Part shown: one piece after another, positions 8,442-57,700 of the stretch
Layout of the letters: each line of letters starts with the position of its first letter
How positions within the stretch are numbered: the stretch's first letter is position 1
NCBI GenBank assembly: GCA_027923505.1
Contig: BROI01000004.1
Location: 372,001-436,000 of the forward strand
Source: Mayamaea pseudoterrestris
Lineage: Eukaryota
DNA length: 64,000 bases
Direction: 5' to 3'
Made by a program: the position numbers and the translations under genes
Notes under the pieces: model-generated
Told to the model about the DNA's origin: nothing
Seen by the model: the letters and a program-made list of their open reading frames with translations, nothing else
Database searches by the model: none

Positions 8442-11400
8442 TTAAGACCGTTGTCGCTTGGCCTCGCGGAGCTTGTCGCGTTTGCCTTCCGCACGATACT
8501 CACGCTTCTTGTTTACCTTGCGAGCGGCTTGAATCGCAGCATCCTTCTTGGCGTTTTCCTTCTCCTTGTCGGCTCGCTTTTCGTCCTTCTTTTCTTTGCG
8601 AATTTTGACCTTCTCCTTTCGAATCGTATTGAGCGCTTGAATGAATGTGACCTTCTTTCGCTCCTCCGGCTCAAGGACTACGGCGCGTTTGGATAAGTAG
8701 CCCTTCTTTTTGCGCTTCGTTGCGTCCTTAGGCTTGCTGGCATATGGAAGTGCTTCCTCCAGCTTCTTGGGAACAAAAAGCTTTGTCTTCTTCTTCTCAG
8801 GTCGCTCAATCGGCTTGTATATAGAGTCCGGGTTGACCTCAATGGGCGTATCCGTCTCGATCTGCAGCTGCGCCTTGGGTTTCATTCCGCGCCAACCTTC
8901 AACACCACCAGAAGTTAAATGGTTGGTAACAGGATTGTAATACTTTTTCACGTCCACAGGCATCCATGTACGGCAAACGACGATATCAGACATGAGAATC
9001 TTATCTTCGAAGGTAGCACGGAAGGAACCTGGCTGGCCTTGGCGGATACCCTTCTTTACTTGACCACGAATGCCACTGACGGTTTTGATCTTAGCGCCCT
9101 CGAAACGACTGACTTCAAGGTCACTGTTGAACATACCGGAAATAAATGCCGAATTTTTGAAGATTTTAGTCGGTGTTCCGACAAGCTTAAGCTTCTTCGC
9201 GATTGAGAACGATGCATTTAGTTCCAATACGACGCCCGTCGCAGCAATTCGGAAGCCTGAAATGTTACCAGCCATGCGTTGAATCGCAAGAATACCAGTG
9301 TTCGGTGGCGTCTGCGGTCCATAGAATGTCGCGTAGCAATGCATATGCTCTGGCGTGTATTTGAGGTACCGATGCCGACTGTTTTGGTCCTCTGTCGAAT
9401 ATACTGGTATGCTCTGAAAGCGGCGCCATCCGATTGAAAACACCAGAGGGTCGTTACACTTTAATATCTTCCTGTGCCAGCGATGTTTCTTGATGCGGCA
9501 ACGCACCAAACCCAGACTAGTCTCTTGGGGAGTCAGACCGCCAAGGATTAACGGCAAGTTTGGGTTAAACGACGAAATGAAAGCAGCTGGTATTCCGTCA
9601 ATTTGCACGCGACAGTACAACCCTTGCCGAAATCCTTCGTGCCTCTGGCGTGCGCGTTCGCCATCTTCGCCAAACTCTTCTTGATTTCTAGCCAAGCGAG
9701 CTTCCTTGTCTTTCTTCATCTGCATAACATACGCATTCTCTTCCTCTTTATCGTCCTGCTCTTTGTCCTTTGTTTCGTCCTCGCCCTTCCCAACTCTGGC
9801 CACCATCTTTTTCTTCTCTTTCTTCTTGGCGTAGTATTCTCGTCGTTGCGTGTCAGTCATGCCTGCCACATCTTCGCTATCGCTAGCTTCATCTTTAATT
9901 TCAAGTTCCGTTCCTCCAAATTTCTCGCCCGTTTGAAGATCTTCAAAATCGCCAAAGTTTTCACCATCCTCGTCGACATCTTCATCAGCCTTGTGCCACT
10001 TGCCCGTCACAAACTTGTCGCGCAGCGATTCTATTAGTGACTCCTCTCCTTCTTCGAGCCATGGTGATACGTCCACATAGCCGGCGTCGAAGGAACCGGC
10101 TAATCTACTCGAATCCTCTTCACCCAAATATGAAGTTTGCAATTCTTTAGCCTCTCCATTGTTGTTTAAACGACCGACTGCGCTAGACTTGCTCTTGGGC
10201 CGGAAAAATTCATCATCTGAAGCATCATCATCACCAGTCTGCGTATCAACAAGTGCGTCGTCTTCACTAACAACAGTGGTTGCAGCACTTCCGTATATTA
10301 ATTCCTGCAGGTTGGCTGAAGCTGACTGCCGGTCGAGGAATGACTGTGCGGCTCGGCGCGATATGTCACTCTTCCAGTCGCCAGGTTTGGAGGACCGAGA
10401 CACCTTATTGCTCCCGCCGGCTGAGGAAGCGTCATCACTATCACTACCTTCGTCGTCGTCATCGTTGATCTCCTCTTCTTGGTCATCATCACTGTCGTGG
10501 TCGACATCTGACATTGCGTCATCCGATTCGTCGCCGCTCTCATCGTCGGATCCGGAATCACTTTCAAATTCGGATGAAATCCCGCCTGTCTGATCACTTT
10601 CCAGGATAGTCCTTCGGCGCAAGGGTATGGACGCCTCATTCACGCGATTGTCGTCCTCCTCTTCGTCGCTTGAGGCGTCGGAACTAGCTGGTATCGCTGC
10701 ACTGCCGCGGAATAGGCGAAGGCTCGATTTCTTCATCTTCTCATCGATCCCAGTTCGAATGTCCTGCATACCTTTCAATATTCCCGCTGGAGTATCGGAA
10801 TCATATTCCGGCTCCATGTCCTCGTCATCTTCTGCTTCTTCGTCATCGCCATCATTGCCAATCCGAGCTGGCAAAGCGAGATTTTCCTTCTTGGTGTAGT
10901 TGATCTTTGGAATGTCAATGTAGATTGCATCATTGTCAAACGCAACTGCGCCCACGTTGGAAAGCGGGGCAAATAACAGATTGCGCTTACTCAAGGATGT
11001 GCGTTCCTTGTCCTTCTCCACGAGTGGGCAAGGATCTGGTAGAGTCGTAACACTGTTCATGCTATAATCACCGACACCAATCAAATGTACCTTCATATTT
11101 GGTTTCAAATGCGTCCCGCGCACGTAGCCGTAAAAAACGACGCTACGAGAGCATTCAGCGTCACGCTCAATCTCGTTCGGGTCCGTAATGTCTTCATGTC
11201 GATCTACAAGAACGTATGGATGGGTATTATGCCAGACAAGAGGGCGGTACTGTTATATGCGTGAGAAAATGGCTAGTGTGAGAGCATATAGGTACAATGA
11301 CCACCAACTTCCGAAAAGTTTGTCTTCTCTTCCTCATTGTCAGCTGCTGACGGCATTTTGCTCGACGGCGTCTTTCATTTCGTTCAAGATGATTCAGATA

Positions 11401-12416
11401 GAAGTCACCAAGAAAGTTGATATTCATCACACAATGAGGGCGACGTGGCATGGCGCGAATGGCAAAGAAACATACCTAAAGTTATAAAGAAAAGTTGTGT
11501 GAGGACCGAGTATCGTAGCTCTCAGCAAACAAGATTTCCGTAAACATAGTTTCAGAAGCCCATAGAGGGAAAATACTTGAGCTCCGCACGATTTTTTCAG
11601 AAGAAGTCACCAAGTTGTTGCTCATCATCAACCACACAACCAAATCGCGAATCCGTATCGCTTAGCAATATAACATACCTTGACTCGACCCATGAATAGA
11701 GAAAGCTGCTTAACTTCATTCTTCAGATATTTGCCGCCAATGACTCCGCTAAAGTGAAACATTTTAGCACCCTCGTAAATCTCAGTCCAAAATCGATGCT
11801 TCAGCAGCTTCTTCGCCTGCCGCACACTCTTGGCCGTCTTGAATGAATCCAAATGTGTAAAGATTCCCATGACTTTGGGGAACCCGTGCGTCTGCAGTAC
11901 ATTCAAGAACTCGAACGTATCCATCTCGAACCCATACTTGGCATCGACGCAAAGCAAGACCAAGTCGGCCACCTTGGCGCAATCCAGCATGGCTGCAGTA
12001 TCGCCACTCGGACACTCCAAGAAGGTGACGCGTTTGCTTTTTCCAGTCACGACGGTAATGGGACCAGTAATTGTTTTAAGGTTGTTGTTCGTGTACAGTT
12101 TGACGAGCGATCGAATCAGTGTACTCTTGCCGACGCCCGGTGGTCCCATGACGACGACAACCGACGGAGGCGCTTCCTCTACGGACGCAACTCGTCTATC
12201 AGTTAATGGAACATACTCCTTCTTTTGCGACCTATCCAAGTTGCGTTGAATCACTCGCTTGGTGCGGCCAATGTTGGCAACGCCGAATGCCTTGTGGTTG
12301 TGCTTTTCGACGCGGGAGCCTTCCTTCTTGGCTTTGACGTCCTTCTTCTTCTCCTTGCCACCGCGACCATCTTTCTTGGTCTTGTGGGTATGGTGGTCCT
12401 GCTTGACTTCCTCCAT
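8442..12416 (-). CDS. BMS1: Ribosome biogenesis GTPase BMS1
   Basis: Exons 12416-11679 and 11249-8442; the 429-nt intron 11250-11678 joins [22 protein letters not shown]-loop [37 protein letters not shown]. Confidence 0.95.
11332..11439 (-). ncRNA. Intronic box C/D snoRNA candidate 2 (BMS1 sub-intron B)
   Basis: Perfect 8-bp terminal stem CCTCATTG/CAATGAGG closing C box GTGATGA (11430-11424) and D box CTGA (11343-11340). Internal D' CTGA (11397-11394) is preceded by CTTGGTGACTTCT. Confidence 0.85.
11470..11503 (-). other. Internal AG|GT splice junction (recursive splice site / zero-length exon) inside the BMS1 intron
   Basis: Minus strand reads CTCACACAACTTTTCTTTATAACTTTAG|GTATGT: branch-like CTCAC, pyrimidine tract, AG at 11477-11476, then immediately GTATGTT, identical to the first 7 nt of the intron donor at 11678. 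Confidence 0.7.
11545..11636 (-). ncRNA. Intronic box C/D snoRNA candidate 1 (BMS1 sub-intron A)
   Basis: C box ATGATGA (11628-11622), D' CTGA (11600-11597) preceded by ACTTGGTGACTTCTT, D box CTGA (11555-11552), terminal stem TGTGGTT/AACTATG with G-U pairs. Confidence 0.8.
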
Positions 12417-12677
12417 GAGTGATGGATGCAAGCTTGACCGATGATAGCTTGGTGGACGAGGCTGCGAAGGAACAATTGCAGGAAATGGACGAGCCATGGT
12501 TGGTCGTCAATGATTTTTCAAATGTGTCCCTATGGTACTAAAAATGTCTCTTTCCATGTCGCACCACGAATCAGTTACCGCGTTACTAATTCCGTCACCA
12601 ACGAATTGCTCGTCGTTTTCGCATCAACTCATCTTCTTTCTTGATAACCAATAATACACAAGAAACAATCCATTACC

Positions 12678-13813
12678 ATGGTAAGACAATTGTTGAAATT
12701 AGCAGCTTAGTGGCGAGCAAAGGAGCCATGAAAGGATATCGATCGACTGAGGTGCTTCTTGCCCTATCAAAACATAAATTCTCACATCATTTTCTTCCTC
12801 TCGTCAGGTGTTCGTCAAAGTTCAAAAGAGCAAGGCTTACTTTAGCCGCTTTCAAGTCAAGTTCCGTCGTCGTCGCGAGGGAAGAACCGACTACCGTCAA
12901 CGTAAGCGCCTCGTCGTCAATGACAAGAACAAGTTCGGATCCACCAAGTACCGTCTCGTTGTTCGAGTAAGTTTTAGCGTTTTAGCTCCTCATCGGTTGT
13001 ACATCAATATCAATTTGCCTTATTGAAGCTCATTCCATTCTGTTTGCTACTGATTCACAGTTCACAAACAAGTTTGTCATTTGCCAAATTGTTTACGCGC
13101 TTGTCGATGGCGACCGCGTCCTCTGCCAGGCTCACTCGTCCGAGTTGCCCCGCTATGGACTCAACTCTGGTCTCAAAAACTACGCTGCTGCCTACTGCAC
13201 GGGCCTTTTATGCGCGCGTCGTCTATTGAAGCAGCTTGGACTTGACGAGACTTATGAAGGAAACACTGAAGTTGATGGACAGATCATCACGACCGAATAC
13301 GAAAAGAAGAAGTACTACGTTGATGAAGTTGACGAGGACAAGCGCCCATTTCGCTGCCTCTTGGACGTTGGCTGCAAGCCCACCACCACTGGATGTCGCA
13401 TCTTTGGCGCACTCAAGGGAGCCGCCGATGGTGGCCTTGACATTCCACACAACGAAAAGCGCTTTCCCGGTTACGACCGCGAGTCCAAGGAGTACGACGC
13501 TGATACTCACCGCGAACGCATCTTTGGCGGTCACGTTGGTGAATACATGGAGTACTTGGAGGAGGAAGATAACGCCAAATACCAGGAGCACTTTGCTGGA
13601 TACATTGCTAGTGATGTTGCCGCTGATGGACTCGAGGACCTATACGAGAGTGTGCACACCAAGATTCGCGAGGATCCATCGCCGTCGGAGAAGAAGGAAT
13701 ACACGCCCGACAAAAAGTACAAGCGCAAGTCCAAGCTGACATGGGATGAGCGCAAGGCTCGTGTGCAGGCCAAGAAGGATGCAAAGAAGGCCGAGCTTGA
13801 GGCCGATGAGTAA
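12678..13813 (+). CDS. RPL5: 60S ribosomal protein L5 (uL18)
   Basis: Exons 12678-12680, 12808-12966, 13061-13813. [56 protein letters not shown]. Confidence 0.96.
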
Positions 13814-34137: not shown

Positions 34138-36967
34138 GGTAGAGGCTGTGGGTAATGAGTGTTAAAGTAGGTGAGTAATTCAGAGTCAGACAAATGCCAC
34201 AAACGGGAGGCCTTGTCCGCCATTTCATTCACTGGACCAGGAATGTAATCATGGAGTGGAACATAGCGATGTGTGCGTTGATGCAAGGACTGGCATCTGA
34301 GTAGGTATGCTGCTGGGCCAGTGGAGGTAGTGGAGCCCTTGCGCTGCCAAGCGACAGCTGGAGTGTTGTCGTGGGAGGTGTGAATGGTGCGCTCACGGAT
34401 GTCAAAATTGTGTGCCAAAACATCATGATGGAGAACCGTCCCAAACAATTCCAAATCACTATTGGTAATAGTGCCATGTGGGTTGTCAAAACTCACCAAG
34501 TCCGCCTCAATGTGAGGAGGGAACCTGGCACGCCACAAGATTGGTTGTAGGGCATTGGTGGGCATGGAGACAAAGGCCACGGCCCCAGCGCCACGACCAG
34601 ATGCATCAGTAGTGCCCACAATAGCCGGGTCATCAGGAATCAATTCAGCAATGCGTGTTGGTCGTGTCTCTAGACCAGCCGCAATCCATCGAAAATCTTC
34701 CAGAAAGTCATGCACTGCCTGGGTCAACCGCAAACGACCAGAGTGACCATCAGGATGGCGAAAGGCCTCTTGCAAGGAACTGAACAGACCACGGCGCCCA
34801 GTGGATGCAAGGACATGGAGCGCAGCTCGCCCAAGAACTTGTGCCACTGCTTGGTGGCAATGCGGCGCCGCGTAGGAGGGATACTAGCTAGGATCTCACG
34901 TAGGCGTTCCAGGCGATGGGCTGGCAATGCAACACTCATCGCACCGGTATCAACCAACCAACCCAGGACTTGCTTGCGAGTGGTCGCACAAGCTCCTTTG
35001 AGTAACTTCTTGACAGACACTGGTTCTTGACGAGCAGGTAAGTCAGTGGGCTCCAGTGGGCGTAGAACTTGGTCAAATGTGTGCAGGAGAACACGTTGCA
35101 ACCTTAGCAGCCGATCCGGATTGCCTTGGGCTAAAGCAATCAAGTCATCCACATACAAGTCATTGTATGCAACAGGACGCTGGAGGATATCAGAGCGCTG
35201 GCGTGGAGCAGGAAGAGGCGCCACACTAGGATCATTGATGGGCGTATCCTCCACAGTCACAACAGGTGGGACAGAGCCGTGTGCGGGCACACTTCCAGGC
35301 AGGGGTGTTGGAGTGGTGGTAGCTGGTAAGGTTTGAGCTTGTAACTCCAGACGGTGAGGCGGTGGTGACTTGGCACCACACTGGAAGGCTTGATTGGCTA
35401 AGTCACAAATGGTCTCTGTCACTGCACAGAAATAGGGTGGAGAATGAATCCAACCCATAGGCAGTGTGAGTGGAAAAGCAATCAGAGGCTCCTCACCAGC
35501 ACACTGAGGAAACAAGACACCAAGCTTGGGGATATCTCCAGGCAGCAAACGCACACGGTAAAATCCATCAGCAATATCCAACTTGGACATGTGGACGGGC
35601 CCATAGCGGGGGTTGGCTCGAGCAATGCGTTGCAGCAAACGATAAAAAGTGCGGCCAAACTGCATGGACTCCAGTGGCGCAACTGCAGCAGTGTCATCAT
35701 TGACCCCAAAGTAGCTGTAGTCAGAGATGGTCCGAGGTCGCCGGTCTCGCTGAGGCACAACACCAAGAGGACTGAGTCGGAGTTGTTCCATTCCAAGGAC
35801 CTGTGAGGCTGGTAGGACGGTCCAGTGGCCTTTCTTGATCATGTCAGTGAACTCCTCCCGCAGAAAAGCAGTGTGTTCAAAGGCAGACTTGTGAGGGCCC
35901 CTCTTGAGCGCCATTTGCTTTTGTGCTAGTGTCCAAGGCTTTTTCTGCATAATGGCTGGTGCGCCACGTGCATCCAATTGGTGTAGCAAATGTGCAGCTG
36001 GATGATCCAGATCCTTGACGCTGGGCTGTAAGTCAGAGGCGCCGCGGCTGGCCTCCACAAAAGCACGCCAATCCGGAGACAAAGCAAGACGTGCAGATGC
36101 CTCCTGAACCAGCTGCCCCAATTCATCATCAAGTAGTTGCAAGGATGAGGTGTTGGTGTGTGTAGGCAACTTGGATGTAGGAAGACTGCCAGGCAAAGTG
36201 TAAGGAGGTGCAGATGCCTTTGGGGAGACCAGGTCATGTGCCTTTGGCTGAGAGGCCCAGTGTGGAGCCCAGCCAGTTGCCATGGCAGGTAACTGTGCAG
36301 GTGCAGCAGTGGCTTCCATTGAGAGTGGAGCAGCCTTGCTGAATGCCAAGTGTGGTGCCATGGTAGGAGCAGCCTTGCTGGCAACCAAGTGTGGAGCCAT
36401 GGCTTGGTGTGACACCACAACTGGGGAGGCGCCAGTACATGGGACTGGAGCAGCCACTGGAGAGGCATCAGCGGTGTGAAGGCCTGGAGAAGCCACATCC
36501 TCAGGTGCGACGGCGACAGACGATTCAAGGGGGCCTGGAGAAGCCACAGCCTGGTGTGTAGGTGTGACGGCAACAGATGGATTGGTGCTAGGAGCCAAGG
36601 TTGGACGACACTCAGGGTGGACAACTTGACGACTTGCTTGGAGTTGACTTGCTTGGACTTGGACCAGGGACGCAGTGGGACCGGGGACAGAGGCCAATTT
36701 GATTACATTCCTGGCAGCAGTAGGCAAGAGACGTGGTGTGGGCAGTAACAATGGTTCTTTCTGCACAACATGCACGCCAGCTTGCTTACCAAGTTCAGGA
36801 GATAGGACAGGTGACACAGTAGATTTAAAACGTTTACTACTGGGCGACTTAATTACTGGAACTACTTCTTCATTTTCGACAACTGGACCTGCGACTCTGG
36901 ATGGTGGAACAGCAGAGGTTGCAGGCGTCAGCGGATTATAACATATAGGGATCCGCCCGCCGGACCG
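33655..36967 (-). pseudogene. Retroelement pol: Pro/Ala linker, reverse transcriptase and RNase H, frameshifted near 34800
   Basis: Frame is open from the TGA at 36970-36968. SPLGVVPQRDRRPRTISDYS, YVDD; ELRSMSL continues as RGLFSSLQ in another frame, then RNase H. Confidence 0.85.
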
Positions 36968-41916: not shown

Positions 41917-44900
41917 CTACTGTATGACGCCTTTCGCAAAGTACCTAGCGATGGTATCGAATCTGTCGTCGGCCTGACTTAGATCTCTCCAGAAATTTTC
42001 TCGCAGGGATTCAGACACGTCCTGTCGAGATTCTCCATCGCCGGCTCGGACCTTGGCATAAACCTCGTCAATGTTTAATCGTGATATGGTTCCTTCCGAA
42101 CTTGATGGAAGGGATAACGATATTCGCAGAAGAGAGTCGATCTCATTCTCCATCGAATTGCAAAGATGGTTGTACTCTTCGACTTCGCTAGTCAACCGCG
42201 ATATTTCTTTTCTGGAATCCTCTAGAATGGATCCGACGTAGTCTAGCGCGACCGATAATGGAACTGTCTGCCGGTTGAGCGTCTTGTTGAAATTCTTTTC
42301 ACTGAATTGACCAGTTCCTTCACCTGCAAGGATGCGAGCAACCCGTACGGGAGGCAATAAACCCTGATCTTTGGCTAGCGCAAGCGCCTCCTGAATATCT
42401 TCAAGAATTTCGTCTGCCTCGTCCTCTTCGTCAGAATCATCTTCATTTTCACTCTGTTTTGGGGACTGCAGGATATCGAATGAGGTCATGATGATGGAAG
42501 AAATAAGTCCACAACGTGTACAGTACCAACTGACTCACCACTTTTAACTTTTCGCCTACAAGGTTGACAAAGTGGCCAAGAACGTCCGCCAACACTTCTG
42601 GATCAGTCCGGCTCATTGCAAGAAGAGCGCGTCGAGACTTTTCACTGCCATCTTTGGCATACCTCTCTAGTAACATGGGCGTCATCTGGAGCCGTTCGTA
42701 CAGCAGTAATTCACCATCTTTAAACCCTGATAATTGCACAAGAACGAGAGCATCATACTCGCCAATTTCACCGCAATGACTGTCCGTCAGCGCCGTTATA
42801 ATTTCTTGGTGCCTCAGCTTCTCAACCTCAATGTCGCCGTTCCGCTTGGCCTGTTTCCACTCATCAAGAGTTACCTCAAGTAACGTACGACGTAACGATG
42901 GCGTCAAGTAGCACCTACTGCGATTACAATGAGCGAGAATGAGACGCAACATCTTTGAATTCTCAACAAATGCAGGTGCAAACAAGTGCACTGGGTACGG
43001 AGGATGAAGTATATCCTCTGGCGAGAGTTCAATCATTTTGGAAAGGGACGCCGAGTCCACTAATGAAGCTTCAGCTAGAAAATTTGGTGAAAATTTGCCG
43101 ACGCACAGGGCGACGACAACTCCGGCAGTCTCTCGTGGTAGAACGCGAGCCAGGCTGACGCCGTGAACCACTAGTATTTCCGCCACTTGCTGGGCATCCA
43201 ACGTGCAGATAGTAGCCAGTGCATCGCGAGGGTTTTCCGATATATTTGCCAGAATTGCCGATAAGGATGCTTTGTTAACCAAACTGGATGTTGAAGCCAC
43301 CAAAGCATCCGCCGCTTCGATATCGTTGAGCTTTAAATAACATGTTCGCAGCAATTCAATATGGACAGAAGTCGCCAACTCCAACTCTCGTAGCTTCTCC
43401 AAATACTTGACCAGTAAAGGAATTTTCGGTGCGTCAAGGAAACGAAAAATGACATGAGAGCTCTCCAGCGACCCAATCGTATGGATGTATTGATCCATTG
43501 CTCCCGCGTAGTCGTCCTTGCTGTACAAATGCTCGGCGTATTCTCGAAACAATGCTGTGACGTCAGCCGCATCGTACGATGGATCCGCGTAAGCAATGAC
43601 AATTGCTGCAGAATACAAGTTCTTCTGTACGAGCAACGATATTTTCTCTTGCGTCAACTTTTCCGCCAAAGTAATCAGAGACCCACCCGATGTTAAAACG
43701 ACGGCACTTGATCGCCCGCTACTTCCGCTCCCTTCCTCACTCTGTACAGGTAACGTCGCTACACCTGCAGCTCGCACCGCACGATGTCCCGGCGACAGCA
43801 ACAAGTGGAAGGCAACAAGCTTGTTAACGGTGTCATAAACATCAACAGCATCGCGCCCCGACTTTTCGTCCGTCGATGCCACGAGAGCGTAACCACTGGA
43901 AACTTGATCCGACTGCACGATTCGCAAGCGCTCGGCCGGCGTTGGCGGCGGAATCCCACAATAAGCCAGTTTGGTGCCTTCGACAGGGGCAACGTTGGTG
44001 CGTTCGGTCCGCTGGTACGAGTACAACCCGTCGTTTCGAGCGACAGTGATTGTGACTTGTCCCTGAACCCAAGTGGCATCAATCAATGACGCCGCGTTTA
44101 CCGGTCGTCCATCCAAATCATGCCTCGCAGATGGCGCTGACAAAGTAGAGTTTCCAGCAGGAAGAGCCATATCGTATGAACACAGACCGACGGCAGAAGT
44201 CATGTTATTATTGCTGGCTAAAGTGCCAACATCCTTGGGTCGATAGGCACAAAATACGCTTGCACGCTGCTGCTGATCCACTAGCGCCAGTTTGACACTG
44301 ACAACTTGTAAGCCTTCCGCCGACGGTGGTGCTGGAATGCGCAAGTATGGCCGCAGTGTATTGTTGCGTAAAGCCACGGCTTGACTGTGGCTGTGATTTT
44401 GCGTATTGTAGGAAAACACCAAAACGACTCCAGAGTCCGTTCCAATAGCCACCATGCCTGGAACAATATCAACTGTCGTGCAGTTACCGTCACTGACACT
44501 CCAAGAATGTAAAAGGCGCCAGAATTTAATGGTTGCTACATCCTCCATTGTTAAGTTTGGTGCAGTCTTGGCAGAAGGCAATGGTTTCTGACATGACAAA
44601 TGCAAATGAGGATCCTCCCATACGACCAATTGATTGGCCGAGACACATGCTAAATGTAGAGGGCCCTGTGGTGGCATTTGAAGCTGCTGCTTGCTGTGAG
44701 TAGTGCCATTATTCGAAACAGAAAGCCGACAAGCCGCTATACCAATTACGTGATCAAGTTCCTTTGTCGCTTGCCTTCGCTGCGGCTGCGGACTTGACGA
44801 CGACGCAGACGCCTTGACGGTTACTGGCGCGACCAAGGCCGACAAGACGCTAAATGGTGCAAAATAGCCTCGCCAGCCATCCAGGTCATCCAGATCCTGT

Positions 44901-54793: not shown

Positions 54794-57700
54794 CTATAGA
54801 GTAGACTGCTCTTGTTCCCAATAGTCCTTCCAAGCAGGTTCAATTATAGGTTCAGTAGCAATAATTTCCTCATCGTCATCATCTCCCCCTTCGGCTGACG
54901 GTGAGCTGGGATTACCTTCCACAATACTCGCAAGATCATCATAACCTTCCGACACTTGCTCGACCGAAAATGATCGACGCTCTGCCTTGTCTCGGCGGTA
55001 AGTTTCACGTGCTTCGTCAGCTGCTTCATGGGACGAGTATCCAAGCCATTCATGTCGACCAGTGCCATTCATTGCGTCATCAACCGGCAACGCAGGAACT
55101 TCGAGACTCTCTGCCCGGATGGTATCCCATGCAGCAGCACAATGCAGCGCTCGAACCTGCAAGACACGGTCGAAGAAGGGATTAACGTCCTCCTTCACCA
55201 CCATCTGCTTTTTCTTGCTTTCCATCAATTGTTCCGCGGCAATCGCACTCTGTCGAAATCGAGAGACGCTCATGAGCCGATCCTTCAGCACAACGTAGCA
55301 TGTGGATTGCGGTAAAACCATGAGAAGTGACTTGAGTGTCTGAAATAGCATAAATCCGCTCCCTTCAGTAGTGGGGTCGCTATCGTTTTCCAGCATCCGG
55401 ATATGGAGATGCCGAAATAACGGCCGCTCCAGCATTTCTACTAACCGGTCAATTTCCAGGAAAAAGACTAGGTTACAATCCAAAGGATTCAGCCGATTTA
55501 TAAACATGTGCGATGTACGGTAGGCCCCTACCCAGAAGCACAGAGTTAATGTACTGGCGAGGTTGTGCGAGAATGTATGGAGAAGAATATGGAAGAGCCT
55601 TGAGCGCTGCCGGTCCCGTTCACTATGCGTATGATAGCAAATGCAGTCTTTCAGAGTCGTGCGCAATGGCTTTGCTTCATTTGTGTTTAACAACACGTGG
55701 CTCAGATGTCGTACGAACGAGGATGCAAATTTTAGACGCTTTGTCGAAGGTACACCTCGCAGCATGAAACGGTCGATTTCGACAGCAAATGACACAAAGA
55801 CAAACTCAGGGGGCTGCATCTTGCACATGTATGTGAGCAGTTTCGACAGGTCACCAACCAGCTCTTCGTTGTAGGTATGAAGCTGAACTAGAGCAAAATA
55901 TACCTCTCGATTGCGCGAAAACATCTTTTGATGGGAGGGCTGAATAATGTTTAACGCATAAGAGACGCATTGTTCAGTCATTGGAAATTGAGGCGCCTCT
56001 GTATCATCTGAACTGTCGGATAACCATGCAGGATGTGTGGAAATTGGAGTTGGATTTGTTCGCATATTCTCACTGTCTTCTCCCTCTACTGGGATTGTAA
56101 TAATGGCAAGAACTTCAAGACTTTTATGGACAATCGTTTCTGGCGGTCGATCCATTAGCTGATGAATGATGGCGATCACAAACTCCCCAGCGAACTAAAC
56201 GGCAACGACTGACAATTTGAGATCATAAAGGCTGAGGCAGAATACTCCATTATGCTAAACTCATCACTTACCTCGGCCTTTATCGCAACAGGAACCACAC
56301 TTTCATACAAAACAATAATCCATTGTAAAGTACATAGCCTCGATAAGATCATTGACTCGTCACTTCGAGTGACTTCGTCTTTGCTGGCATTAAACCAGCC
56401 AGGACTTTCGATGCCTGTCCCGTCTTGTACAACGTCCATCCTGTATGGCACACGATCCACAGCAGGCGGATGACGCGCGGCTAGTCCATCAGGCGAGTCC
56501 AATTCGTCTCGCAAAGCAGCAATGAAACCGTCAAGCAGTGGCACATAGCTCGGACCATCTCGGCGAACGGCAACTTGGAGAGTCTGGTTAGTCTGCTCTG
56601 CGAGTGCCCGTGTGCTTTGGTCGGGCAGGAATAAGTCTTTTGACGATCCGTTAGGTTGAAAATCATCTCCAATACTTAAAAAGATCCCAGGTAGCATGTT
56701 CGGCAAAGCGTTCCTGATAGATGTTGCTGCACCAGATAGATGACCACCGGCCTTGAAAACATCCACTGCAGGAATTGCTCCGGCATCATTCTCGCTAGAT
56801 TGTGGAGCATTGCTTGGAGTGTCCAAATGCGTTTTCACAATGCGCGACATCCAATACATGGCCACCTTTCGTACACATGGATCAGGGTGTTCCATTGTAG
56901 TTACAAGCGACTGCAGAACCTGGTCGAAATCCACTCCAACTGACTTGGTGCTATCATCGGCACCGGGCGCCTCGTTGACCAGCAATTTGGGGAGCACAGA
57001 ACGAAGAAAGGCAAGAGCCGCCTGCCGAATATCCTGTGATGGATCCCCGACCATGTCAAGAATGCCGCCCAGGAACAAGTGTAGAAATTCGAGAATTGGC
57101 GACGACACGAGCTTTTCGTTCAGTTCCTGTAACCAAGTCAGAGTCAGTCGTTTGGTAGCCTTGTTTCGCATGTGTACGAATCGAGCAAAGACTGGAATGC
57201 AATCCTCGGCCGAGAAGCCTTCCGATCCTTGGATCATGGCCTTGACAATAACTTCCTTCATTTTCTTGTCGAGTAGCTCGGCGCCTGATCGCACGTCCAC
57301 ATCCACATCAGCATACAGCGATCGCAGAATCTCGAAGAGAATGAAGAAATGCTGGACAGCCATGCTGGGCATGACCTTGACCACGTTAAATAAGGACTCC
57401 GTTGCGTAGTAGCGGACGCGCTGACTATGACACTGGCAGCAATGCACCACGCTTGCCAAAATCAAGTCGCGACACTCGGACACGAGCGGGTCCGTGTCTT
57501 TTGCCTTCTTCAATCCAATTGCACAGGCTGCAAGCGCCACGACACCTCCTTTGCGAGCATCCTCGTTTAAAGATCGAACATAGTCGTCCGATAGGAGTAA
57601 CAGTATCGCTCGTATTCGTCCAAGTTCGTTCTGCTGTACCAGCGACCGCACCACCTTCTCAATCTCCATGGCGGCTAATCGCCGTCGTTCATACCGCTTG

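Follow-up and report, generated by a model that had tools for sequence, protein, structure and literature searches.

The stretch of DNA analysed here is a window of 64,000 nucleotides (nt) from the diatom Mayamaea pseudoterrestris (assembly GCA_027923505.1, contig BROI01000004.1, forward-strand positions 372,001 to 436,000; all positions below count from its first letter), which carries on its minus strand a gene for BMS1 with one 429-nt intron. Comparison of this intron with its counterparts in other diatoms gives good support to the view that it consists of two complete introns, each carrying one box C/D small nucleolar RNA (snoRNA) and each a putative copy of an ancestral unit, which abut one another through an exon of zero length. 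The AG|GT junction at which the two meet is beyond chance. Judging from the splice signals on either side of this junction, two-step splicing through the zero-length exon is the likeliest mechanism by which the intron is removed, and we regard it as probable.

An acceptor directly adjoins a donor inside the BMS1 intron

The sole intron of BMS1 is a GT..AG intron that runs from 11678 to 11250 and interrupts the reading frame between the codons for K and Y (exon 1 ends ...GTCAAG at 11679, and exon 2 starts TAC CGC CCT from 11249, giving K|YRPLVW...). The nearest database relatives of the exon translations are diatom proteins, several of them named BMS1 by their source; the best match is 88% identical (P0003, known as a protein alone) and the Phaeodactylum tricornutum protein is 73% identical. 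The protein is collinear with these relatives at the K|Y junction, which indicates that no exon is missing. Removal of the full 429 nt was seen in assembled contigs from sequencing runs of a single study, the kind of which is unrecorded (X1-X4): one cDNA-like contig of 1634 nt in X3 and one of 386 nt in X4 join 11679 to 11249 exactly, with the ends of the gap reading CT..AC on the plus strand, while contigs from X1 and X2 contain the intron, as unspliced, DNA-like sequence.

An initial annotation of this DNA had split the intron into sub-intron A (203 nt) and sub-intron B (226 nt), and its coordinates and letters are borne out, as is the total of 429 nt. Its statement that the intron is more than twice as long as the others holds for the comparison with the three further window introns that we delimited by eye (76, 127 and 94 nt). 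At the boundary between A and B, CTCAC (11503-11499) is followed by a T-rich, pyrimidine-rich stretch and then by TTTAG|GTATGTT, with the junction at 11476|11475. The intron therefore contains a complete 3' splice signal, with branch point, pyrimidine tract and AG, that is directly followed by a GT donor, as in a recursive splice site. By sequence, removal of A regenerates the donor, exon 1 AAG being joined to GTATGTT, so that the first seven intron positions match those of the outer donor. Both of these features had been claimed at the outset and can be read in the letters.

Splice sites were scored with a position weight matrix (PWM) built from 21 real introns, namely 18 distinct orthologous BMS1 introns from the diatom loci described below and the three by-eye window introns. 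The internal acceptor and donor (8.3 and 7.9 bits) fall inside the range of the real sites (4.6-16.2 bits for acceptors and 5.2-16.1 for donors) and lie 8-10 bits above the best competing sites in the intron, at -1.4 bits for AG (19 scanned) and -0.4 bits for GT (27 scanned). Moreover, the nonamer AGGTATGTT is present three times when both strands of the 64-kb window are counted, against about 0.5 expected, and this intron's outer and inner donors account for two of these occurrences.

Each half carries one box C/D snoRNA

The window was scanned with a strict C/D pattern (RTGATGA ... CTGA plus a terminal stem), which yielded five matches. Three of these describe the snoRNAs of A and B, with stems of 7-8 pairs, and the remaining two lie at 35559-35708 and 54848-54947. 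Both snoRNA A and snoRNA B have a C box near the 5' end, a D box near the 3' end and a terminal stem, and the predicted folds of both close this stem. Each stem comprises 8 base pairs, which are all Watson-Crick in snoRNA B and include 4 G-U pairs in snoRNA A; for A the scan also gave an alternative 3' end, at 11514, and its fold is not better than those of shuffled sequences (z 0.69). In a contig of run X1, position 11435 reads C for T on the plus strand, which corresponds to G for A in the RNA. The site belongs to the 5' arm of the B stem, where the change turns an A-U pair into G-U and retains the pairing.

Just before the D' box, both snoRNAs have the same 13-nt guide, CTTGGTGACTTCT, which is separated from D' by one letter in A and by two letters in B. 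The D' box itself, CTGA, has the same distance from the donor in A and B (position 79), and the C' box, as judged by eye, is degenerate in both. A conserved stretch in domain V of the large-subunit ribosomal RNA might be the target of this guide, a suspicion to which we give no weight.

Rfam gave no match in the window at the gathering score, and a permissive search returned weak generic C/D matches below threshold only, such as snoZ196 on snoRNA B at 23.7 bits. A match to the bacterial 'gyrA RNA' family on the plus strand (11337-11421), antisense to snoRNA B, reached 29.3 bits against a gathering score of 45 and was taken as probably due to chance, aided by the snoRNA hairpins.

Other diatoms have a single snoRNA unit at the same site

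For comparison with other diatoms, the first 125 residues of exon 2 were aligned with ten diatom homologues, and a subsequent scan of metagenome contigs gave 80 loci, in which the presence of the intron was judged by tblastn with both exon ends. An intron of 97-299 nt at the identical codon boundary (K|Y or K|F) was found in 25 of the 80 loci, and locus L003 has a further such intron, inside which the contig is broken off. The other loci have no intron at this boundary; many of them are mRNA-length contigs and many are distant relatives. One guide element before D' was found in 20 of the 25 introns (15 distinct sequences, three with a single changed letter); five have none and none has two. 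The conserved element spans 12-13 nt, and the motif of guide plus D' is confined to the BMS1 intron within the 406 kb formed by the loci and the window. The orthologues have terminal stems of differing letters in which complementarity is retained.

A sequence model built from 11 orthologues, with A and B excluded, was then run on the 64 kb. It scores sequence alone, and the stems stand in differing registers of its alignment. This model gave two significant matches, one to B (32.4 bits, E 5.8e-9) and one to A (19.9 bits, E 4.6e-5), so that the strict scan and the orthologue model agree with the annotated count of one C/D snoRNA per half. A third match, at 43351-43378 (E 0.068), was rejected, as there is no C or D box nearby. 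Taken together, the predicted snoRNAs form a conserved diatom C/D family that is hosted in the BMS1 intron. Since the relatives have a single unit, the state of the window, with two units where they have one, is well supported as a doubling.

Several loci depart from this pattern. An intron without a snoRNA (97-212 nt) stands at the site in L006, L022/L023, L037 and L041, and contigs of 2.7-20 kb from L009, L020/L021 and L034/L035 have no intron there; judging from these loci, some diatom lineages have lost the snoRNA and some the intron. Variant boxes occur in L004, L010, L011/L015, L039 and L001, for example TGACGA or TGAAGA for the C box and CCGA or GTGA for D or D', and the D' box of L001 reads TCGGA. 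The only other AG|GT[AG] in the 25 introns is GCAG|GTGTAC at intron position 33 of L025/L027, upstream of the single snoRNA and hence not separating two units.

Layout, divergence and origin of the two units

The two halves are laid out in parallel, as the initial annotation had described, and the same layout fits the orthologous single introns. From donor to snoRNA there are 41 nt in A and 36 nt in B (32-94 nt in orthologues), and from snoRNA to AG 68 and 82 nt (64-137 nt). These two ranges come from the 13 introns with acceptable ends among 15 scanned, L008 and L018 having been set aside as mis-assigned. From snoRNA to a branch-like CTNAC there are 43 nt in A and 52 nt in B, compared with 38-62 nt in L001, L010, L011, L013, L015, L017, L025, L036, L039 and L057. 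With the outer acceptor alone in use, the distance between snoRNA A and the acceptor would be 294 nt.

A and B are identical in the donor (7/7), the guide (13/13), CTCACAC (7/7) and the terminal AG. Elsewhere the identity of their flanks is that of shuffled sequence, at 0.44 for the 5' flank (shuffle mean 0.45, reached by 702 of 1000 shuffles) and 0.47 for the 3' flank (shuffle mean 0.47, 664 of 1000). The snoRNA bodies are 39% identical to one another, and to the copies of other diatoms they are at most 48-51% identical. At this saturated level, A-B similarity cannot tell a recent origin from an ancient one. The tandem duplication proposed at the outset is upheld as far as the doubled unit is concerned, whereas a recent tandem copy is not required, given that A and B are as diverged as orthologues. 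The first 12 letters of B are also those of the L001 intron, which is only suggestive among some 30 comparisons. A BMS1 tree was made from 51 of the 80 loci together with the window, leaving out the 29 that are numbered above L059 or have short exon matches; in it the window is placed close to L001 and L041, but not with strong support.

Should the junction date back as far as the divergence of A and B, selection would have kept the inner splice signals: they were retained while the rest decayed, and their use would be the obvious reason. Movement of whole snoRNA introns by 'excision and insertion' has been proposed for fungi (PMC3596301).

Guide spacing and a possible reason to keep both copies

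The nucleotide that a C/D guide directs for methylation follows the established fifth-nucleotide rule. With the same guide placed one letter from D' in A and two letters in B, the rule predicts that the two would direct methylation of two neighbouring target nucleotides, which could explain why both copies were retained. The gap is one letter in L011, L013, L015, L036 and L040, and two letters in the other snoRNA-bearing loci, a difference that by the rule would move the predicted methylation site by one nucleotide. On the BMS1 tree the two types are interspersed, and even the sisters L039 and L040 (100/98 support) differ. Such a pattern could result from one-letter changes that happened repeatedly, or from an old paralogue pair of which BMS1 retains a single member in most lineages.

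Probable two-step splicing and the alternatives

In two-step splicing, the outer donor would pair with the branch point and AG that are transcribed first (11500 and 11476), snoRNA A would be released in the lariat of A, and exon 1 would be joined to the GTATGTT of B, which would recreate the same donor. A second reaction would then free lariat B with snoRNA B. The reverse order would also be compatible with the sequence and give the same mRNA, since an AG already precedes the donor of B, and A would still have a branch point and AG of its own. In both cases, each snoRNA would keep a branch point about 50 nt downstream, and one branch point per snoRNA is the likely benefit of the arrangement. 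The spacing in A and B matches that of human C/D snoRNAs, which favour a place some 50 nt before the branch point and whose assembly is generally coupled to splicing (PMC5519232). The internal signals would moreover be hard to ignore, because the outer donor meets a branch point and an AG 203 nt on, before the outer acceptor is transcribed (the other introns are 76-127 nt). Use of the internal acceptor would be harmful unless the abutting donor works, because a retained B, with 226 nt and hence not a multiple of 3, shifts the frame and leads to a stop (open reading frame (ORF) 11227-11475, as read from the sequence). The stepwise splicing of like-built fungal introns, described in the Discussion, is a precedent that speaks for two steps as well.

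The main alternative is that the 429-nt intron is removed in one step, the internal AG|GT being an unused relic and the snoRNAs being freed by endonuclease cuts and exonuclease trimming, which we consider unlikely but far from negligible. The sole junction seen, 11679 to 11249, fits this reading, and it is equally the product of either order of two-step removal. Intronic snoRNA clusters are processed from a polycistronic precursor in plants, with two such clusters in the green alga Ostreococcus tauri (PMC7671301), which may offer another route for the BMS1 pair, and in mammals a long terminal stem can free C/D assembly from its dependence on splicing (PMC5519232); A and B both have stems of 8 pairs. 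These two considerations weigh against two-step splicing, as do several results of our own. No intermediate junction was present in the X1-X4 contigs, which drop rare forms and are uninformative either way; no relative with two snoRNA units was found among the 25 same-site introns; a literature text search for the guide target, with an 11-nt core and its complement, gave primer-like coincidences alone among the matches listed; and the PWM is rough, as 18 of its 21 training sites are one orthologous junction across species. In addition, one unit could have been inserted recently with its own ends, in which case the junction could be young and the argument from decay would be weakened. One-step removal, on the other hand, requires that a strong branch point, pyrimidine tract and AG at a normal intron length are always skipped, and any use of that acceptor without a working donor would leave B in the message. 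It also leaves all internal signals intact while the other A/B sequence is at shuffle level, and in the relatives each intron keeps a single snoRNA with a branch-like motif some 40-60 nt downstream.

Two further readings seem to us very improbable, each to a similar degree. One snoRNA copy, most likely A, might be a decaying pseudogene, and the internal junction a functionless feature that has not yet been lost. The lower score of A on the orthologue model, the four G-U pairs among the eight of its stem and a fold no better than shuffles all point this way; yet A has canonical C, D' and D boxes and a complete 13-nt guide even though its parts free of constraint resemble B no more than shuffled sequence does, a pattern unlike that of a decaying copy, and its one-letter D' spacing recurs in the functional-looking single copies of L011, L013, L036 and L040. 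There is a similarly slim chance that the internal sites serve regulated unproductive splicing, in which retention of one half brings an early stop and lowers BMS1 output. Retention of A, read from the sequence, does stop the frame after 16 additional residues (ORF 11628-12506), and retention of B would shift it; however, no half-retained isoform was present among the X1-X4 contigs, which is weak evidence, and the sequence gives no reason why the half that remains after removal of the other should be spliced poorly.

More tentatively, two-step splicing can be joined with the evidence on selection and guide spacing into a single picture, which is possible but falls somewhat short of an even chance: splicing through the zero-length exon would be obligatory in a diatom coding gene, both introns would have been kept intact by selection, well after their other sequence had drifted to randomness, as each provides a snoRNA with its own branch point, and the paralogues would have divided their task and methylate neighbouring nucleotides of one target. 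Under this combined picture, other diatoms could have lost a unit by back-copying of a half-spliced transcript, which would explain why one-letter and two-letter D' spacing is scattered over the BMS1 tree.

Feature coordinates and neighbouring sequence

Table 1. Features of the BMS1 gene and its intron in the window, with the basis of each assignment.
Feature	Position	Strand	Basis
BMS1 exon 1 (GTPase domain)	11679..12497	-	Translation and Pfam GTPase-type matches; start is first ATG in ORF list; ends ...GGTCGAGTCAAG
BMS1 exon 2 (AARP2CN and RIBIOP_C domains)	8445..11249	-	Single open frame to stop; domain matches
Sub-intron A, 203 nt, GTATGTT...TTTAG	11476..11678	-	Letters; layout equals orthologous single introns
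Sub-intron B, 226 nt, GTATGTT...AACAG	11250..11475	-	Letters; layout as in orthologous single introns
Outer 5' splice site GTATGTT	11672..11678	-	Joint seen in contigs; PWM 13.9 bits
snoRNA A	11544..11637	-	C box TGATGA 11627-11622; guide CTTGGTGACTTCT 11614-11602; D' CTGA 11600-11597; D CTGA 11555-11552
Branch-point-like CTCACAC of A (A at 11500)	11497..11503	-	24 nt before internal AG; 43 nt past snoRNA A
Internal 3' splice site TTTAG	11476..11480	-	PWM 8.3 bits, against -1.4 for next best intron AG
Internal 5' splice site GTATGTT, adjoining the internal AG (zero-length exon)	11469..11475	-	PWM 7.9 bits in unspliced context, against -0.4 for next best GT
snoRNA B	11332..11439	-	C box TGATGA 11429-11424; guide CTTGGTGACTTCT 11412-11400; D' CTGA 11397-11394; D CTGA 11343-11340
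Branch-point-like CTCACAC of B (A at 11279)	11276..11282	-	29 nt before outer AG; 52 nt past snoRNA B
Second CTCAC in B	11265-11261	-	Letters
Outer 3' splice site AACAG	11250..11254	-	Joint seen in contigs; PWM 10.7 bits

BMS1 stands head to head with a uL18/L5-like ribosomal-protein gene, named from a reading of its translation, with about 180 nt between the two start codons (window 12497-12680). This neighbour lies on the plus strand, with its ATG at 12678 and two introns of 127 and 94 nt. Elsewhere in the window, at 41915-41850 of the minus strand, GTATGTC is directly followed by the C-box-like AATGATGA, and a second GTATGTT stands 35 nt further on.

Discussion

The analysis adds to diatom biology a conserved family of intronic C/D snoRNAs whose host, BMS1, is a gene for ribosome biogenesis. 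Use of the internal site would mean that the splicing of snoRNA introns through zero-length exons extends beyond fungal non-coding hosts to a protein-coding gene of a distant lineage, the stramenopiles. The constraint of 'one snoRNA, one branch point' would then, if true, hold broadly and could shape intron structure, and the locus would provide a clean natural case of the duplication of a whole intron unit, with a bearing on models of intron gain. If the site is unused, BMS1 would have an ordinary two-snoRNA intron with a telling scar.

Juxtaposed snoRNA introns of fungi are reportedly treated also by Mitrovich et al. 2010 (as cited in PMC3596301 and PMC5033589). Fungal snoRNA hosts with an 'intron-intron-intron' structure have one snoRNA per intron, and expressed sequence tags (ESTs) and reverse-transcription PCR (RT-PCR) revealed their stepwise removal from 5' to 3'; these structures are the outcome of small exons having been lost at least 61 times (PMC3596301, Luo et al. 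2013). In gene clusters of the Candida parapsilosis group, RNA sequencing uncovered nested and recursive splicing with an exon size of zero (PMC5033589, Donovan et al. 2016). The juxtaposed introns of the Candida clade, Debaryomyces hansenii, Yarrowia and Euascomycetes resemble the BMS1 intron in having one C/D snoRNA per short unit, an AG directly followed by GT and a donor that is recreated, and one snoRNA per abutting unit is indeed what we find. The fungal hosts, however, are non-coding, with mutually unrelated snoRNAs brought together by exon deletion, whereas BMS1 is a protein-coding host in a diatom, the frame is restored exactly and the snoRNAs are paralogues with the same guide. Nor is there a sign of the loss of an internal exon in BMS1, the protein being collinear and the relatives having one unit. 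Stepwise removal in fungi was demonstrated by ESTs and RT-PCR, while for BMS1 the two steps are deduced from sequence.

The 336-nt intron of SPNCRNA.445, the snoRNA61 host of Schizosaccharomyces pombe, contains a zero-length exon that was detected by spliceosome profiling and is conserved in sister species (bioRxiv 10.1101/226894). Like the BMS1 intron, it measures a few hundred nt, hosts a snoRNA, has a 3' splice site adjoining a 5' splice site and is wholly absent from the mature RNA. It differs in that its internal site was seen as spliceosome-bound ends in a non-coding host, the BMS1 site being known from the letters of a coding one. Ratchet points of Drosophila and vertebrates likewise regenerate a 5' splice site from an AG|GT exon of zero nucleotides, but they lie in introns of tens of kb, where they are thought to aid the removal of long introns, in contrast to steps of about 200 nt in BMS1 (bioRxiv 10.1101/006163). 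The statement in the initial annotation that such AG|GT sites are described mainly in very long animal introns reflects this literature and overlooks the short snoRNA introns of fungi (PMC3596301, PMC5033589, bioRxiv 10.1101/226894).

Its companion statement, that an intron normally gives one snoRNA, is incomplete, as introns with several snoRNAs are usual in plants and are also found in green algae (PMC7671301). The BMS1 intron shares with those clusters the presence of two snoRNAs between one exon pair of a coding gene related to ribosome biogenesis. The clusters undergo polycistronic processing, and the available passages of that source make no mention of splice signals between the snoRNAs, whereas BMS1 has a complete acceptor-donor pair there. 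Stwintrons of filamentous fungi share with our proposal for BMS1 two consecutive splicing reactions; in a stwintron, however, a splice signal of the outer intron is broken by the inner one, which forces the order, while the BMS1 introns lie side by side (PMC8469720). Among the literature matches listed, there was no description of zero-length-exon snoRNA introns in a diatom or in a protein-coding host, and none of the matches listed was a paper on intron-hosted snoRNAs in diatoms. Abutting snoRNA introns as such are already known from fungi; what is new in BMS1 is the coding host, the paralogous snoRNAs, the gain of a unit rather than the loss of an exon, and the diatom lineage.

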